Below are positions 44,713-62,289 of a DNA stretch of 64,000 nucleotides, piece by piece. A program made the translations under genes and the position numbers. Numbering within the stretch: position 1 is the stretch's first letter; each line of letters opens with the position of its first letter. This DNA comes from Sphingobacteriaceae bacterium (GTDB lineage Bacteria; Bacteroidota; Bacteroidia; Sphingobacteriales; Sphingobacteriaceae). The notes under the pieces are model-generated. The model was not told where the DNA came from. It was given only the letters and a program-made list of their open reading frames with translations, and searched no databases. The DNA lies in contig JAGIAD010000001.1 in assembly GCA_017745075.1 (NCBI GenBank), positions 702,876-766,875 of the forward strand, written 5' to 3'.

Positions 44713-44808
44713 TCTCAATTAATCTTTCTCCAATTTAAAATATGGCAATTAATCTATTTCCAATTCAATAATAATCCCAGTGCAAAAAGTCATGGTTAAG
44801 GTTTGTAT

Positions 44809-55385: not shown

Positions 55386-58300
55386 TTATAATCCTGCACT
55401 TAAACCAAACGACCATGTTTTAATCCCGGGATAACCTCCGCGGCCTGAAGCAGATTCGGGATCATAATCGCCCAAACGTTTATCGGCCATAATGGTGAAA
55501 GGATTATTGGCTGTTCCGTAAATTCTCAGTTTAGACAAACCAATTTTTTTCACAGCATTTTGAGGTAAGGTATACCCCAGAGTAATGCCCCTTACCCTGA
55601 AGTAAGAACCGCTAAACAGGTAAAATGACGAAAGCTGATTGATATTATGACCCGCATCAGCAGTTAACAATGTCCTCGGGAAATCTGCATTTGGATCAGG
55701 GTTTTCTTTTGTCCAGCGGTTTAACAACTGCACTTTGGCATTTGCACCGTTAAAAAAAGGTGTCGAAGCTTCTTGCCCCAAAAAGGTTTTTACTTTAGCT
55801 ACGCCATAAGTAAGGACATTAAAATCAAAACCTTTGTACGATGCGCTTAGGTTAAAACCATAGTTTACAAAAGGTACGTCGTTGCCAATAATGGTACGGT
55901 CGGCTGCGTTAATCACATTATCGCCATTTATATCCCTGTATTTAATATCTCCGGCTCTGGTACGGGCATCCTGGAAAGCGTGTGAAGCAACCTCTTCATT
56001 ACTAACAAAAAGACCATCAGCAATATAACCGTAAAAAGATCCGAGCGATTCACCAACTCTTTGAATATATTGGCCATCAAATCGATCATTGTTATTATCA
56101 CCAATCTTGGTGATTTTACTTTTAATTAATGATAAGTTACCACCTACGCTAAAAGTGAAATCTTTACCAATGCGGTTATTATGGGTAACAGCCAGCTCAA
56201 ACCCTGTATTACGCGTACTTGCTGCATTGGTAAAAGGTACCGTTAGTGGATAAGTTGCCAACGCAGCATTACGCAATAACAGATCTTTGGTATCCTTAAT
56301 ATAATAATCTGCAGTAATGTCTAATTTACCTTTAAACAAGGTAATATCTGCTCCGAAATCGGTCATATACACTTTTTCCCAGGTAGTGGTTGGCCATGAT
56401 CCGTCTGCCTGCCAGATTCCGTCTTGTGCGGTACCTTCAAAACTATATTGAAAGCCTGAGTTTAACCGGTTAAAATAGTTACCAACAGCAACCACATCCT
56501 GGTTCCCCAATGAACCATAAGAACCACGAAGTTTTAAATTATCAACCCAGTTGATGTTTTTCATGAAATCTTCTTTTGAAACCACCCAGCCTGCAGAAAA
56601 CGATGGAAAAAAGGCTCTGCGTACATCTTCACGGAAGCGCGAAGAATAATCGATACGGGCATTTACCTCTAACAGGTATTTATCTTCAAAAGCATAGTTA
56701 AAACGGCCGAACATCGATCGCATGGCCCATTCTTCGGCTGCTGTTCTGTTGGCTAAACCAAAAACACCACCAATAATATCGTCGCCGTTGTTATCTGATA
56801 ATATATCTTCTCCGTTACCAGAACCATTAATGATGGTACTTAAATCGTTATTAGGGAAGTTTCTTCTGCCCAGAAATGCACTTCTAAGCACATTGCTTTC
56901 TTGCGATGCACCTACAGTTAGCTTGCCATAATGTTTACCAAAAGTACGTTCATAATCTGCAGTAGCTTGCACCAGCAATTCTTTTCTTTTAGACCAATAC
57001 TCTCTTAAATCGTTCTGTGTTCCTTGTCCGGCAGGCAGTGGAATAGGGTTACCCGTTAAGAAATTATTGATCGGAGTCATGGTATTGTTAAAGGCCGTGC
57101 TGTTATTGTTGGTAAATTTTAACGAAACCAATCCATTAATAGACAGACCTTTTAATGGCGTTAAAGTAGCGTTGGCAGCAGTTTGGAGCAAATTATTACG
57201 GTTGCTGCCTTTTGATGATTCGGCGATCATGCGGGCCTGGTTACGGTATGGAAGTGAGCTGCTGGCTACTGTTCCGTTGTTCACCGACCCCCACTGGCCA
57301 TTACTCTGGCGAAAAACAGTGGTTGGCAAAGAACGGTTTAACTCCGTCCAAGATAAGTTACCCAAACGATCAAAAGCCTGGTTAATGAAAGAGATATTGG
57401 TACCGATTTTTAAAATATTCTCTACTACTTTGGTTTCGGTATTTAGTTTTGCACTAAAACGATCCTGGTCTTTATTAGGAATTAATGACTCCTGCGTTAA
57501 ATAATTTAAGCCTAAATAAGTACTGGTGGTTTTACCAGGTGCATTGATATTTAAATTCACATCGCCTTGCGGTGCACTCGATCTTAAAACCTCTTTATAC
57601 CAGTCGGTATTTGGATATAAATCAGGTTGAGAACCATTTCTGTATAATTCTATTTGAGCTGGAGTATACATAGGGCTACGGCCCACGTTGGTTAAGGCTT
57701 CGTTATAAAGCGTAGTATAATCAACCGATCCCAAATATTTAGCAATACGGGTTGGCGACTGCCAGCCATAATTGGCATTTAACTCAATACTTACTTTTTC
57801 TCCACCGCCTCTTTTGGTGGTAACCATAATTACACCGTTAGCTGCTCTCGAGCCATATAAAGCTGCAGAAGATGCATCTTTTAACACAGACATGCCCGAA
57901 ATATCATTTGGATTTAGTGTGGCAAACTCCTGCGAGCTGGCCGGAATACCATCAATAATATAAAGTGGAGTGCCTGCACCTGCCAAACTGCTTCTGCCCC
58001 TGATATTAACAGCAGTACCTCCGGTAGCACTTGCACTTACATCGCCAGGGCGTTGCAAAATGGTTAAACCCGGAGAAATACCCTGCAAGGCATTTTGTAT
58101 TGAGGTTACAGGCCGCTCTTTTAATTGTTTAGGTGTAATGGTGGCGATGGCTCCGGTTAAACTCGATTTTTTTTGTGTACCATAAGCGACCACTACTACC
58201 TCATTTAAATCGTTGCTTTGCGGCACCAAAGTAACTTTTACGGTAGCCGATGCTTTTATTTCTTTGGTTTGATAACCTAAATAAGAGATCACCAAAATGG

Positions 58301-58850
58301 CATCATCGGCCACACCCGTTAGTTTAAAGTTTCCACTTTCATCACTCATGGTGCCCTGCTCTTTGCCTTTTATTTTGATACTGGCACCGGGTATACCTTT
58401 ACCAATTTCGTCTACAATCGTACCAATCACATCAATAATTTTGTTTAAGGGCGCCCCTTGTGCCAGCTTATTTGCAGCAGCAATATTTAAAGGCCGTTCT
58501 TTAACCACAATGGTATTGGCCTGTATAGAATAAGTTAAGGGCTGATTTTTGAAGCACTGATCCAAGGCTTCGGTTAAAGGCATATCTTTTATATCAATGC
58601 TCACCATATTTGCCTTTTTTAAATCGCTCTGGATAAAAAACACATTATAGCCGCTTTGATTTTTTATTGCTTTAAGCACTTTTTGTAACGATGCATTTCT
58701 TTCGTTAAGTGTAATGTTCTTTTGTGCAAAACTGCCCGCATTAACATGTAAAAAGGCTACAAAAAGCAATAAGATGGTTAGCTTCATAGATAACAGAATT
58801 TTATTCTTTATACGGCTTGAACCGTATAAATTAAAATCGTAAATTTTCAT
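55386..58850 (-). CDS. SusC/RagA family TonB-linked outer membrane protein with N-terminal STN signalling domain
   Basis: STN segment (LQKVLKAIKNQSGYNVFF..MPLTEALDQCF), CarbopepD_reg-like segment (GTIVDEIGKGIPGASIKIKG), TonB box (LNEVVVVAYGT), and C-terminal FGLSAGL. Confidence 0.92.
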   Translation of the reverse strand: MKIYDFNLYGSSRIKNKILLSMKLTILLLFVAFLHVNAGSFAQKNITLNERNASLQKVLKAIKNQSGYNVFFIQSDLKKANMVSIDIKDMPLTEALDQCFKNQPLTYSIQANTIVVKERPLNIAAANKLAQGAPLNKIIDVIGTIVDEIGKGIPGASIKIKGKEQGTMSDESGNFKLTGVADDAILVISYLGYQTKEIKASATVKVTLVPQSNDLNEVVVVAYGTQKKSSLTGAIATITPKQLKERPVTSIQNALQGISPGLTILQRPGDVSASATGGTAVNIRGRSSLAGAGTPLYIIDGIPASSQEFATLNPNDISGMSVLKDASSAALYGSRAANGVIMVTTKRGGGEKVSIELNANYGWQSPTRIAKYLGSVDYTTLYNEALTNVGRSPMYTPAQIELYRNGSQPDLYPNTDWYKEVLRSSAPQGDVNLNINAPGKTTSTYLGLNYLTQESLIPNKDQDRFSAKLNTETKVVENILKIGTNISFINQAFDRLGNLSWTELNRSLPTTVFRQSNGQWGSVNNGTVASSSLPYRNQARMIAESSKGSNRNNLLQTAANATLTPLKGLSINGLVSLKFTNNNSTAFNNTMTPINNFLTGNPIPLPAGQGTQNDLREYWSKRKELLVQATADYERTFGKHYGKLTVGASQESNVLRSAFLGRRNFPNNDLSTIINGSGNGEDILSDNNGDDIIGGVFGLANRTAAEEWAMRSMFGRFNYAFEDKYLLEVNARIDYSSRFREDVRRAFFPSFSAGWVVSKEDFMKNINWVDNLKLRGSYGSLGNQDVVAVGNYFNRLNSGFQYSFEGTAQDGIWQADGSWPTTTWEKVYMTDFGADITLFKGKLDITADYYIKDTKDLLLRNAALATYPLTVPFTNAASTRNTGFELAVTHNNRIGKDFTFSVGGNLSLIKSKITKIGDNNNDRFDGQYIQRVGESLGSFYGYIADGLFVSNEEVASHAFQDARTRAGDIKYRDINGDNVINAADRTIIGNDVPFVNYGFNLSASYKGFDFNVLTYGVAKVKTFLGQEASTPFFNGANAKVQLLNRWTKENPDPNADFPRTLLTADAGHNINQLSSFYLFSGSYFRVRGITLGYTLPQNAVKKIGLSKLRIYGTANNPFTIMADKRLGDYDPESASGRGGYPGIKTWSFGLSAGL

Positions 58851-58958
58851 ACATTTGTTAGGTTTTAGGTTGAGTTAAATGCCTATAGCAGTTGCTATTA
58901 CATTTACAATGTTTTAACTATTTGGTTATTGTTGGAACAATTTTAATCTAAAGCTTTA

Positions 58959-58988
58959 AACGGGTTTCGATTGCAGTCGAAATCCGTT
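58959..58988 (-). promoter_or_regulatory. Hairpin between FecR and SusC-like transducer genes
   Basis: AACGGGTTTCGA ttgcag TCGAAATCCGTT forms a 12-bp stem with one G-T pair. It lies 23 nt after the FecR stop. Confidence 0.35.
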
Positions 58989-59010
58989 CTTCAGATTAAA
59001 ATTTAATATG

Positions 59011-60156
59011 TTATTTTAAAATTTTAATCCTCCTTCCTTCTATCTTAAATTTAAACTTATCAGTAGATTCTAATATTTTTAAGGTTTCCTGCAGGTTGTT
59101 GTGTTTTGAAAAAGATCCGCCGAAGTAAATCCCATCAAAATCGCCAACATACTCTATATCAACATCGTACCACCTGGCTAATTTTTGCATTGCTTCTTTA
59201 ATTCCTTCATTATTGAACACAAAGAAGCCATTTTTCCAGGCGATATATTCTTCAACATCAACATTACTTACTTTGAACTCCTTATCGTGGAAAACAGCCT
59301 GCTGTCCGGGTTTTAACAAACCTGTAGCCAGCGGACTAAAGTTTTTAACGGCTACCCCGCCTTCTACCAGGGTTGTTTTAATCTCATCATCATCAGCATA
59401 GGCACTTACATTAAAATGGGTACCCAAAACACTTATTTCCTGTTTTGATGTTTTAAGTTTGAAAGGCTTGTTTTTATTCCTGGCTACTTCGAAATAACCT
59501 TCACCGGTAAGTTCTACCATTCTATATTTGCCTGTAAAAGCAGTAGGATATTTTAATGATGACATGGCGTTTAACCAAACTTTGGTTCCATCGGGTAATG
59601 TAACCTGATACTGGCCACCGGCTGGTGTACTGATGGTGTTAAAACCTGGCTTAGCCTGTGCTGAATTATTTTCCAAAATGGTATAAACCAATTGCCCGTC
59701 GGCAGTTTTGGTAATTTGAATTCCCTCCTGCCTGGATATTGTACCATTTAGCGCCTGATCTAAATTAATTTTAGTTCCGTCGGCAAGTGTTAAAAAGGCT
59801 TTGTTTCCTCCGGGTTTGATTAAACCAGCTAATTTGGTTGTCTTTTTTACGTTGGTACGTTCATTTATAATAAACAAACCTAAGCCCAAAACAATAATTA
59901 ATGAGGCGGCTACAGCTAAGCGATAAAAATACCTGTTTTGACGTTTCTTCTCGTGCTGCCCTATTTCCTGGTTAATCCTGTTAAAAATCTTTTTGCCCGT
60001 TTCTGCATGCTCTTCCCCATCTATCTGTTTTTCGCCCTCCAGAAGATTTTGATCCAACTGATCATTGTACCAGGATTCTAATTTAAGGCGTTCTTCCCCA
60101 CTGGCAGTACCGGCTATGTATTTTTCTGTTAAACTTGTTAATTCTGCTTTTTTCAA
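59011..60156 (-). CDS. FecR family anti-sigma factor
   Basis: N-terminal anti-sigma segment (LTEKYIAGTASGEERLKLESW), a TM helix (LAVAASLIIVLGLGLFII), and a FecR domain (GEGYFEVARNKNKPFKL..VLGTHFNV). Confidence 0.9.
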   Translation of the reverse strand: MKKAELTSLTEKYIAGTASGEERLKLESWYNDQLDQNLLEGEKQIDGEEHAETGKKIFNRINQEIGQHEKKRQNRYFYRLAVAASLIIVLGLGLFIINERTNVKKTTKLAGLIKPGGNKAFLTLADGTKINLDQALNGTISRQEGIQITKTADGQLVYTILENNSAQAKPGFNTISTPAGGQYQVTLPDGTKVWLNAMSSLKYPTAFTGKYRMVELTGEGYFEVARNKNKPFKLKTSKQEISVLGTHFNVSAYADDDEIKTTLVEGGVAVKNFSPLATGLLKPGQQAVFHDKEFKVSNVDVEEYIAWKNGFFVFNNEGIKEAMQKLARWYDVDIEYVGDFDGIYFGGSFSKHNNLQETLKILESTDKFKFKIEGRRIKILK

Positions 60157-60249
60157 TTGCTCGTGGTTTGGTGTATGTACCCAAAACGAGAAGTATCCCC
60201 CAAAAGAATTTTAATTATTTTTATAAACAACTATTTAACAGCTAATTAT

Positions 60250-61105
60250 ATTTAATGAAATTTAAAAAAATTACCATATCAGTCATTGAAGGAAGTTTAA
60301 GACTACCCTAAATGAACTTATATGCCTTAAATGGGTGAAATACCTTTCGATATCTGATAACCATATAAGCCACTAAAGAAAATATAAGATTACCTTAAAT
60401 GAAATTATATGCCTTAAATGGTGAAATACCTTTCGCCCTCTGATAACCATATAAGGTCATTAAAGAAAATATAAGATTACCTTAAACGAACTTATATGCC
60501 TTAAATGGTAAAATACCTTTCGTCGTCTTATCACCATGTAAGCCACTAAAAAATATAAGACTACCTTAAATGAACTTATATGCCTTAAATGGTGAAATAT
60601 CTTTCACCATCTTATCACCATGTAAGCCACTAAAAAAATATAAGACTACCCTAAAGTGAACTTATTTGCCTTAAATGGGTGAAATACCTTTCGATATCTG
60701 ATAACCATATAAGCCACTAAAGAAAATGTAAAACTCCTTAAATGAACTTATACGACTTATGGTGAAATACCTTTCGCCATCTTATCACCATATAAGTCAC
60801 TAAAGAATATATAAGACTACCTTAAATGAACTTATATGCCTTAAATGGTAAATACCTTTCGCCATCTTATCACCATGTAAGCCACTAAAGAAAATATAAG
60901 ATTAGCTTAAATGAACTTATATGCCTTAAATGGTGAAATACCTTTCGATATCTTATCACCATATAAGTCACTAAAGAAATATAAGACTACCTTAAAATGA
61001 ACTTATTTGCCTTAAATGGTGAAATACCTTTCACTATCTTATAACCATATAAGCCACTAAAGAAAATATAAGATTATGCCTTAAATGGTGAAATACCTTC
61101 ACCTA
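60250..61105. repeat. Tandem array of about 10 copies of an ~86-bp non-coding unit
   Basis: The anchor TATGCC/TTTGCC occurs at 60321, 60408, 60495, 60579, 60665, 60751 (variant), 60835, 60920, 61006 and 61075, giving periods of 84-87 bp and a final 69 bp. A degenerate leading copy starts near 60250. No ORF of 60 aa or more exists on either strand. Confidence 0.9.
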
Positions 61106-61689
61106 CCCCAGATACCACCAAGCAACAATATGGCCCAAAATAAGAATTCGCCCATTTCGGTACGAAGGAGGCGTAATGCAATGGTAATCTGGTTTTCTAC
61201 CGTTTTTGGAGAAAGATTTAACCGGTTAGCAATTTCTTTTACACTAAGGTGCTCTTTTCGGCTCAGGATAAAAATTTCTTTACATTTTTGAGGCAACAAC
61301 TCAATACTCTCATCCAGGCGTTGTGCAATTTCTTTTTCGGTAAAGGCATTTTCGGCATTATGTGCACTCACCAAAAGATCGGTATCATGAAGTAAATCGG
61401 TGCGTAATTTACCATCTCTAATGGCTTTAAAAACCTGAAAACGAACAGCAGTAAACAGATAATTATTCAGATTATCGACCGAAGTATGCTCGCGTTTTAA
61501 CCAAAGACTCACAAATATCTCCTGTATAATATCTTCAGCGGCCTCCCGATTACGTAAAATATGATAGGCTGATAAATATAACCTGCTCCAGTACCTGTTG
61601 TAAATTTTTTCGAACGCAGACCGATCATTACTTTGCATATCGGCAACAAGCAAACTATCAGGCCATAGTTGTAAATTATCAGGTTTCAT
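61099..61689 (-). CDS. ECF (sigma-70 family) sigma factor
   Basis: Region 2 (AEDIIQEIFVSLWLKRE), region 4 HTH (LSRKEHLSVKEIANRLNLSPKTVENQITIALRLLR), and a hydrophobic C-terminal tail. Confidence 0.9.
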   Translation of the reverse strand: MKPDNLQLWPDSLLVADMQSNDRSAFEKIYNRYWSRLYLSAYHILRNREAAEDIIQEIFVSLWLKREHTSVDNLNNYLFTAVRFQVFKAIRDGKLRTDLLHDTDLLVSAHNAENAFTEKEIAQRLDESIELLPQKCKEIFILSRKEHLSVKEIANRLNLSPKTVENQITIALRLLRTEMGEFLFWAILLLGGIWGR

Positions 61690-61821
61690 TAGTTTAGTAT
61701 AAAGAATATCTTTGCAATACTAAGCAAAAAAATAACGGCTCAATTTACATATTTTTTACAAAGTAGCATAAATGTTGCATTGTTTGCGAGGCAAGTAAAC
61801 TGAGTTAACAATTAACCGGCA

Positions 61822-62289
61822 TTACAGCGGATAAGCCGTCTCACTTTTTGGCTCTGATAGTACAAAGTAGCTTTGAACGGTTGTAATATTGGGCAGTGTG
61901 GCCAGCTTATTCCGTAAAAATTCATGATAGGCATCCATATCTTTAGTAGCAATACGCAAGATAAAATCGTGTGCCCCGGTCATTTGAAGACACTCCATTA
62001 CTTCTGCAAATTTGGAAACTTCGGTTTCGAATTCGATCAGGGTTTTAGCCGTATGTTCTTTCAGCAAAACATGTGAGAACGCAATCAGATTGCTGTTGAT
62101 TTTTTTGCGATCAAGGATTGCCACAATTCTTTTAATATAACCTTGCTCCTTTAACCTCCTTATACGCTCGTGTATGGTTGCTATCGATTTATGCAGCTTT
62201 AATGCTACTTCTTTATGGGTAAGAGCGGCATCATGCTGCAGTAATTTCAATATTTCGATGTCAACCTGGTCTAAATCTCCTTGTATCAT
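61822..62289 (-). CDS. Lrp/AsnC family transcriptional regulator
   Basis: LDQVDIEILKLLQHDAALTHKEVALKLHKSIATIHERIRRLKEQGYI plus a C-terminal RAM-like domain. Confidence 0.9.
   Translation of the reverse strand: MIQGDLDQVDIEILKLLQHDAALTHKEVALKLHKSIATIHERIRRLKEQGYIKRIVAILDRKKINSNLIAFSHVLLKEHTAKTLIEFETEVSKFAEVMECLQMTGAHDFILRIATKDMDAYHEFLRNKLATLPNITTVQSYFVLSEPKSETAYPL

Follow-up and report, generated by a model that had tools for sequence, protein, structure and literature searches.

A tandem array of ~86-bp units between an ECF sigma factor gene and its FecR gene in a Sphingobacteriaceae bacterium: probably a tolerated, locus-specific minisatellite

In a stretch of 64,000 nucleotides from a Sphingobacteriaceae bacterium (GenBank assembly GCA_017745075.1, contig JAGIAD010000001.1, positions 702,876 to 766,875 of the forward strand; hereafter the window), the gene for an extracytoplasmic function (ECF) sigma factor is separated from the gene for its FecR-type anti-sigma factor by about ten tandem copies of a non-coding unit of roughly 86 bp. 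The question raised by this locus is whether such an array, lying between the two halves of a signalling pair, is a device that sets the one against the other or a repeat that has grown where it did no harm. A first-pass annotation, made from the letters alone, had left several answers standing, among them an iteron-like protein-binding platform, a structured RNA that uncouples sigma from anti-sigma expression, a spacer of variable copy number and a neutral minisatellite. It is the last of these that the data favour: on balance we consider it somewhat probable that the array is a minisatellite specific to this locus, that it arose locally, that the haplotype bearing it recombines, and that it is most probably tolerated rather than purpose-built, and we infer that it is no dedicated regulatory device.

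The observation itself is confirmed. Tandem Repeats Finder placed the array at 60273-61087 of the window with a period of 87, 9.5 copies, 86% matches and a score of 1154, and gave scores to periods of 171 and 341 as well; elsewhere in the window a single tandem repeat scores above 52, a 30-bp unit at 44716-44773 (1.9 copies, 85% matches, score 88). The anchor positions and periods assigned to the array in the first-pass annotation agree with the sequence, as does the 942 bp it gave for the distance from the sigma stop to the FecR start. With unit boundaries set as in Table 1, all units abut head to tail in one orientation; lengths among the nine full units run from 83 to 87 bp and pairwise identities from 78 to 91%, and each of the nine is matched by an nhmmer profile with E-values from 1e-19 to 4e-24. 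The unit that comes first in the direction of transcription is matched by the same profile at 61044-61100 (E 1.6e-10) and reaches into the sigma gene, covering its last codons together with the TGA stop (tca at 61099-61101). An internal deletion had been described in this copy, which holds good at about 19 nt rather than 17, and the overlap with the stop codon is to be added to it. At the opposite end a degenerate leading copy had been placed from 60250, but 60250-60272 is A/T-rich flank outside the array, and the FecR-side copy is 60273-60359, the most degenerate of the nine full units.

A 27-nt core of the unit (the anchor 27-mer) occurs six times at up to three mismatches, with no occurrence elsewhere in the window and none in 100 shuffles, and of CCTTAAATG, for which 1.3 occurrences would be expected in the whole window, the array holds 13 and the remainder one. 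The variants ATGGGTG and CGATATCTGATA, which had been reported as private to units 1 and 5, are indeed common to the units starting at 60273 and 60617, and this fits a weak higher-order period of four units. Coding capacity is negligible, the largest open reading frame (ORF) being 29 aa with stops in all frames, and unit lengths are mostly no multiple of 3. The array has a G+C content of ~30%, compared with 38-40% in the flanking genes.

Misassembly could produce a spurious array or a spurious copy number, and the short-read Logan assembly SRR14086906, whose sigma and FecR proteins are identical to those of the window, does break at both array edges: the two genes lie on separate contigs, which end 52 nt past the sigma gene and 196 nt before FecR, in both cases inside the array. 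However, the edges themselves (66 and 80 nt into the array) are base-identical to the window in that assembly, which reproduces the edges only, the copy number being that of the window assembly alone. Furthermore, differences among the units are not random noise but distinct substitutions held in common and a higher-order pattern, and related arrays are present in three other independent assemblies. An artefact is hence very improbable.

How far the array extends beyond this genome was assessed through the genomic context of sigma and FecR homologues, leaving out GSP4, P. miscanthi and other distant sigma orthologues. The array is absent from seven orthologous lineages with otherwise intact loci, in which the spacers measure 106-162 bp (Table 1), so that the array enlarges the gap from about 155 bp in relatives; the expectation that sigma and FecR genes normally adjoin is therefore only partly right, as the orthologues are spaced too. 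Related sequence occurs at exactly the same site in three other lineages, here called L012, L013 and L014. The L013 contig (ENA) stops 38 nt past the sigma stop, within a window-like unit, the L012 contig (Logan) stops in repeats, and the complete 435-bp spacer is covered in L014 (ENA). In L014 and L012 the repeat is a composite of ~150 bp, present about twice and made up of module A (about 80 bp, TTTACCACCTAAGAC...GTCTAAGGTG), module B (63 bp, palindromic, ACCATTTAAG...CTTATATGGT) and a short linker. As to the variation in copy number that had been suspected, the counts between lineages are 0 at the seven array-less loci, about 2 composite units in L014 and 9.5 in the window; within the window's species the array is resolved in one strain.

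The composition of the unit points to its source. Each ~86-bp unit joins a copy of the sigma stop-codon region (..GTGAAAGGTATTTCACC) to a palindromic module of ~63 bp bounded by the same sequences as module B. The 5' part of the unit (..GCGAAAGGTATTTCACC) is homologous to the sigma stop-codon sequence of the window and of L013 (..GGTAGGTGAAGGTATTTCACC and ..GCAAGTGAAAGATATTTCATC), and in both of these lineages the array begins within the sigma stop codon; array-less relatives end sigma in AAA-TAA (K-TAA) and the window in R-TGA. The core of the window unit is 87% identical to module B of L014 and L012, and a dimer of window units aligns to the segment B1-linker-A'-B' of L014 with the ~65-nt core of A' deleted. 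As aligned, then, the window unit is an L014-type composite minus the core of one module (A). Short unit-like pieces also occur in array-less spacers, namely CTCATTTA..TAATGGT in locus L017 and GCTTATAT in L019. Since the unit holds sequence from the sigma 3' end, its origin would be local, and the simplest reading is a tandem duplication of the sigma 3' end and the proximal spacer, followed by internal deletion and amplification in the window lineage. Native sequence duplicated in tandem repeatedly would in this way have become a minisatellite.

The history of the array-bearing spacer differs from that of the genes on either side, because spacer and sigma 3' end disagree with the sigma gene tree. 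Sigma DNA of the window is closest to that of the array-less loci L017 and L018 (90-91% identity), its identity to that of L012 and L014 being only 80-81%. The FecR-proximal spacer of the window is 83% identical to L014, against 72-76% for the array-less loci L006, L007 and L008 aligned there. The last ~30 nt of the window sigma gene (..LLLGGIWG) match L013, L014 and L012, whereas array-less loci read ..LLLAGIWGK, within a hydrophobic C-terminal tail, GEFLFWAILLL.GIWG., that is conserved across the family. The array-bearing spacer, with the last ~30 sigma nucleotides and the FecR-proximal spacer included, is thus a distinct haplotype. It was apparently exchanged through homologous recombination, for which the breakpoint would lie some 30 nt ahead of the sigma stop (61099-61130).

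A repeat that is patchily present among close relatives could also be a nest of a low-copy dispersed element, in which modules A and B, being non-autonomous palindromic sequences comparable to miniature transposable elements with inverted repeats (MITEs) or repetitive extragenic palindromic (REP) sequences, were inserted and then amplified. The modules do end in inverted repeats, 10 bp long in module B (ACCATWTAAG / CTTATATGGT) and 13 bp long but imperfect in module A (ACCACCTAAGACA / TGTCTAAGGTGGT), and the Bacteroidetes provide a precedent in the BrickBuilt MITE of Porphyromonas gingivalis (PMC4596501). This explanation predicts further copies elsewhere in Pedobacter genomes. However, nhmmer found no copy of either module outside the sigma-FecR spacer, whether in the other 63 kb of the window or across about 110 kb from related Pedobacter loci, and blastn matched the array to nothing among plasmids and phages. 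Exact searches with a 20-mer against 185,579 species genomes and with a 21-mer against JGI metagenomes returned chance matches only, which lay in unrelated phyla or in coding DNA, although both words span the window-specific deletion junction and are insensitive to diverged copies. All occurrences of the modules lie at one orthologous site, no target-site duplication was recognised, and the sigma 3'-end sequence within the unit points to local duplication. The unit is therefore locus-specific rather than dispersed in the DNA searched, and insertion of a mobile element is improbable.

Several established classes of repeat or RNA locus were considered and set aside. [quoted passage not shown] Iterons are direct repeats of 17-22 bp at a replication origin, bound by Rep; the present locus is chromosomal, part of a polysaccharide-utilisation cluster, and has no rep gene nearby. 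Loci of the dCas12f-sigmaE type, in which a sigma gene shares an operon with dCas12f and a guide RNA, lack linkage to FecR and SusCD, and the order rpoE-fecR-susCD is the canonical non-dCas12f type (PMC13472631); in the window sigma is followed by FecR, SusC and SusD, which is the canonical order, and on its upstream side an AsnC regulator is the sole gene before the PALP gene. Of the marks of a dispersed MITE, the array shows the inverted-repeat ends but not multiple insertions with target-site duplications, genome-wide sensitivity being limited.

Why an array of this size should be harmless is suggested by the part of the spacer in which it lies. The half next to sigma is highly variable in all orthologues, and the ~100 bp next to FecR are conserved. 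A block of ~70 bp directly upstream of FecR (60157-60230; TTCTTTTGGGGGATAC..TTTTGGGTACATACACCAAACCA) is conserved in most orthologues, as is the TTG start codon of FecR, apparently ATG in L014. A promoter-like TTG-N19-TTCTTTTG lies at 60201-60230 in the window, and the arrangement TTG-N17-19-TTCTTTTG stands at a fixed distance of 50-51 nt from the FecR start in six of nine orthologues. By consensus matching, the FecR-proximal ~100 bp probably give FecR its own promoter or leader, in which case uncoupling of sigma from anti-sigma may exist even where the array is absent. In all relatives, the spacer appears unconstrained in its sigma-proximal half. The array would occupy this unconstrained half, upstream of the conserved FecR block, and since it disrupts nothing essential its expansion would be tolerated. 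Within the array itself, sigma-70-like promoter sites are in no excess over shuffles, the strict Bacteroidetes site TTG-N17-21-TAnnTTTG is absent from both strands, and no terminator-like (intrinsic) site was found.

If transcribed from the sigma promoter, the array would form an untranslated string of imperfect hairpins, ~0.8 kb long, 3' of sigma. On the minisatellite reading this string would be at most passive, with somewhat less read-through into fecR or some protection of the 3' end of the sigma mRNA. The main rival assigns it a function: an intercistronic RNA hairpin array, co-transcribed with sigma and acting like the clustered REP sequences called bacterial interspersed mosaic elements (BIMEs), or like Correia elements, in operons. 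It would block 3'-5' exonucleases and so stabilise the sigma mRNA, or be cleaved by RNase III, or exert polarity; reduced read-through into fecR would set the ratio of sigma to anti-sigma, and copy number would tune basal SusC/D activity.

To weigh this rival the strand matters. The genes lie on the minus strand, and the sense transcript is the reverse complement of the sequence in which structure had first been sought. By minimum free energy, the sense consensus unit folds into a small hairpin (hairpin 1) and a long imperfect one (hairpin 2) at -22.2 kcal/mol (z -3.2), compared with -14.1 kcal/mol for the antisense strand. Hairpin 2 has 93.5% of its cells paired across 11 copies from three lineages, and its pairing reaches 94.7% when read as sense RNA but 81.5% as antisense, the difference arising through G-U pairs. 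The earlier hint of plus-sense RNA, drawn from the G-U pair that ATGTAA variants retain, is reversed over the whole hairpin. Module A of L014 and L012 also forms a hairpin (z -2.7), a lone compensatory event replaces a bulge-shifted U.G of the window by G-C in L014 and L012, and the element persists across diverged lineages. These observations speak for a functional RNA.

Evolutionary constraint on the fold is another matter. RNAalifold, applied to the aligned units, preferred a different pairing and found no pair changed on both sides, so that covariation-aware folding yields no compensatory pair. The internal sub-repeats of the unit permit alternative pairings, the named hairpin structure is only marginally better than shuffles (10 of 500), and hairpin 1 is broken in 6 of the 11 copies. 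Stems are as variable as non-stems (minor-allele cells 7.2% vs 8.9%, p = 0.46), with no signal of constraint. Rfam gave no covariance model near its gathering score: in a scan of the region at E up to 10, the models that score highest in the array are those of plant and animal miRNAs, at 20-27 bits where gathering scores are 46.7-86, and no family reaches its gathering score anywhere in the window. Nor is the array needed by the seven related lineages that lack it; FecR probably has its own promoter or leader, and no terminator-like site accompanies the hairpins. The structured-RNA proposal, weakly supported by these data, keeps, then, a long hairpin retained in the sense strand, but gains a single compensatory change and no reduction in stem variability, and we regard a functional hairpin array as unlikely.

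A protein-binding platform would act on DNA instead. A regulator would bind cooperatively to sub-repeats of the form CATWTAAG, spaced 9-10 bp apart, or else to the palindrome TGAAA-N4-TTTCR, the candidate being the Lrp/AsnC-type protein encoded just upstream, and DNA wrapping or a roadblock would result between sigma and fecR. The sub-repeats are phased within each unit (CATTTAAGG, CATATAAGT, CATTTAAGG at 0, 9 and 19), a spacing of about one helical turn; the palindrome is present in most units, and in 7 units if the central gap is allowed to be 3-5 nt (TGAAA-N3-5-TTTCR); CCTTAAATG is enriched as described above; and the AsnC-family gene (61822-62289) is on the same strand as sigma. Nevertheless, tandem duplication multiplies any motif, and the enrichment follows from it. 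The palindrome is absent from the divergent control region between AsnC and PALP, where an AsnC site would be expected, for which reason AsnC/Lrp sites in the array were rejected; the repeat as found in L014 and L012 has not conserved it; the motifs of the unit are not present in the conserved sigma or susC control regions; and in relatives eight genes part the AsnC gene from sigma. The iteron-like platform finds no support in these data, and it is highly doubtful that the array serves as one.

The preferred interpretation, a tolerated minisatellite, has difficulties of its own, and these deserve to be set out together. Despite a divergence of 9-22% between its units, the array has not collapsed. 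Lineages with only ~80% identity in sigma DNA still carry related modules, so that the element would be old or repeatedly transferred, and a purely neutral repeat does not usually behave in this way. Every copy keeps hairpin 2, which pairs clearly better in the sense strand, and a bulge shift makes one of the changes between lineages compensatory. The phased sub-repeats and the palindrome could be protein sites, and the array may affect the ratio of sigma to anti-sigma.

Set beside described systems, the array is one more case of a type of feature already known. Its closest known analogue is the set of 77-bp mycobacterial interspersed repetitive units (MIRUs) of senX3-regX3 in Mycobacterium tuberculosis. 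At that locus, a MIRU-type variable number of tandem repeats (MIRU-VNTR), units of 77 and 53 bp lie in tandem between the genes of a signal-transduction pair thought to be co-transcribed; they occur in few lineages, vary in copy number between strains and uncouple the downstream regulator from the upstream gene (PMC4213456). The likeness consists in tandem units of 50-100 bp between the genes of a signalling pair, restricted to certain lineages; more broadly, head-to-tail units of 40-100 bp between same-strand genes of a presumed transcription unit are as in the MIRU type. In contrast to MIRUs, which occupy about 40 dispersed loci per genome, the unit described here is found at one locus only, without dispersal in the 64-kb window and about 110 kb of related loci, and in contrast to the MIRU-bearing region, which has measured promoter activity (PMC4213456), the array units carry no promoter consensus and the likely promoter of FecR is situated outside the repeats. 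The two share no sequence similarity and come from different phyla. Supply et al. are said to have described, in 1997, small ORFs within MIRUs that overlap the flanking stop and start codons. The present units differ from this, with stops in all frames, no ORF longer than 29 aa and lengths mostly not divisible by 3, and only the first of them overlaps the sigma stop codon.

Within the same phylum, the BrickBuilt MITE of P. gingivalis contains a minisatellite of 23-nt units in a mobile element, is present 19 times per genome, has bidirectional promoter activity and has been proposed to influence neighbouring transcription (PMC4596501). Both are intergenic, species-restricted, spacerless tandem repeats with inverted-repeat ends, but the unit considered here is 86 bp long, confined to a single locus, of local sequence origin and without a detected promoter. 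The array belongs to neither the MIRU nor the BrickBuilt family. REP and BIME clusters (described in general terms in PMC2817692), such as that of malE-malF, are intercistronic imperfect palindromes whose RNA hairpins can stabilise the upstream mRNA and give differential expression within an operon. REPs are G+C-rich sequences of 20-40 nt in more than 100 copies per genome, alternating in orientation within BIMEs and linked to RAYT transposases. The array resembles them as a cluster of imperfect palindromes in an intercistronic region, and their mechanism is the one invoked for a functional hairpin array; it departs from them, and was rejected as a member, because its units are 86 bp long, ~30% G+C, in one orientation and at a single locus in the DNA searched.

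The genes around the array form a polysaccharide-utilisation locus (Table 1). The sigma gene belongs to Bacteroidetes expansion family 1 (TIGR02985, 138.5 bits against a cutoff of 126.4), and sigma, FecR and SusC are all encoded on the minus strand, SusC being the downstream target module of the sigma/FecR pair; beyond it lie genes for SusD, an RraA-like protein, a GH2 protein and a member of the enolase superfamily. Upstream of sigma, at 61700-61760 on the minus strand, a conserved promoter-like stretch AAATTGAGCCGTTATTTTTTTGCTTAGTATTGCAAAGAT (TTG-N18-TAGTATTG), judged by eye, is common to the orthologues and would fit the -33/-7 promoter type of Bacteroidetes. AsnC stands directly before sigma in the window (61690-61821 lying between them) and in L017. 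In the relatives L005-L008, L018 and L019 a block of genes intervenes between the AsnC regulator and sigma, comprising cNMP-binding, YceI, tautomerase, SDR, lumazine-binding, NMO and other genes.

The spacer between FecR and SusC is ~93-97% identical across orthologues, while SusC DNA is only ~60% and FecR DNA 76-78% identical. It contains a long nested hairpin (TTTTAATCTGAAGAACGGATTTCGA-CTGCA-ATCGAAACCCGTTTAAAGCTTTAGATTAAAA; -35.9 kcal/mol for the fold of the whole spacer) and two 6-bp palindromes, ATTGTTCCAACAAT and ATAGCAACTGCTAT. Rfam gives no match to this spacer, and the window contains no second copy. It is probably a sigma-dependent susC promoter or leader, and is arguably more interesting than the array.

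Table 1. Features of the sigma-FecR locus in the window, and spacer lengths at array-less orthologous loci
Feature	Position in window, or source	Strand	Remarks
First unit in transcription direction	61044-61110	-	~19-nt internal gap; unit alignment
Full units, first five	60958-61043, 60872-60957, 60787-60871, 60704-60786, 60617-60703	-	
Full units, last four	60533-60616, 60446-60532, 60360-60445, 60273-60359	-	
Hairpin 2, representative	60874-60923	-	CAUAUAAGU..GCUUAUAUG, 17 pairs with bulges; equivalent segment in every unit
FecR-proximal spacer	60157-60272	-	conserved across orthologues; alignment of orthologous spacers
ECF sigma-70 factor gene	61099-61689	-	196 aa, Bacteroidetes expansion family 1; Pfam Sigma70_r2 and r4_2
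FecR-type anti-sigma / transmembrane sensor gene	59011-60156	-	381 aa; Pfam FecR and FecR_C
SusC/RagA TonB-dependent transporter gene, N-terminal STN domain	55386-58850	-	Pfam STN, CarboxypepD_reg, Plug; TIGR04056
FecR-SusC spacer	58851-59010	-	160 bp; alignment; context, outside the array
Array-less spacer	Pedobacter sp. AK013		153 bp
Array-less spacer	P. psychrodurus		161 bp
Array-less spacer	JGI genome		158 bp
Array-less spacer	Logan SRR18573377		106 bp
Array-less spacer	Logan SRR7050961		about 161 bp
Array-less spacer	ENA ERZ27397460		158 bp
Array-less spacer	complete genome CP021237		162 bp

A bolder interpretation combines the haplotype with the hairpins: array-bearing and array-less spacers would be alleles exchanged by recombination and kept in Pedobacter populations, and the sense hairpin array would act as an insulator between sigma and anti-sigma, tunable through its copy number. 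We regard this as rather improbable. Were it true, more units would mean less read-through into fecR and a higher ratio of sigma to anti-sigma, the basal level or the induction threshold of the linked SusC/D glycan-uptake locus would be altered, and the minisatellite would be a rheostat for trans-envelope signalling. If the hairpins do alter read-through or mRNA stability, nature would have provided a case in which the number of repeats sets how much sigma there is relative to anti-sigma, in parallel with the MIRUs of senX3-regX3. If the array is merely tolerated, its interest would be of a practical sort: short-read assemblies break at this locus, and strains of Pedobacter might be told apart by it as a candidate VNTR marker. 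It would also demonstrate freedom to vary in the sigma-proximal half of the spacer, in contrast to the strong constraint on the ~100 bp next to FecR and on the FecR-SusC spacer.

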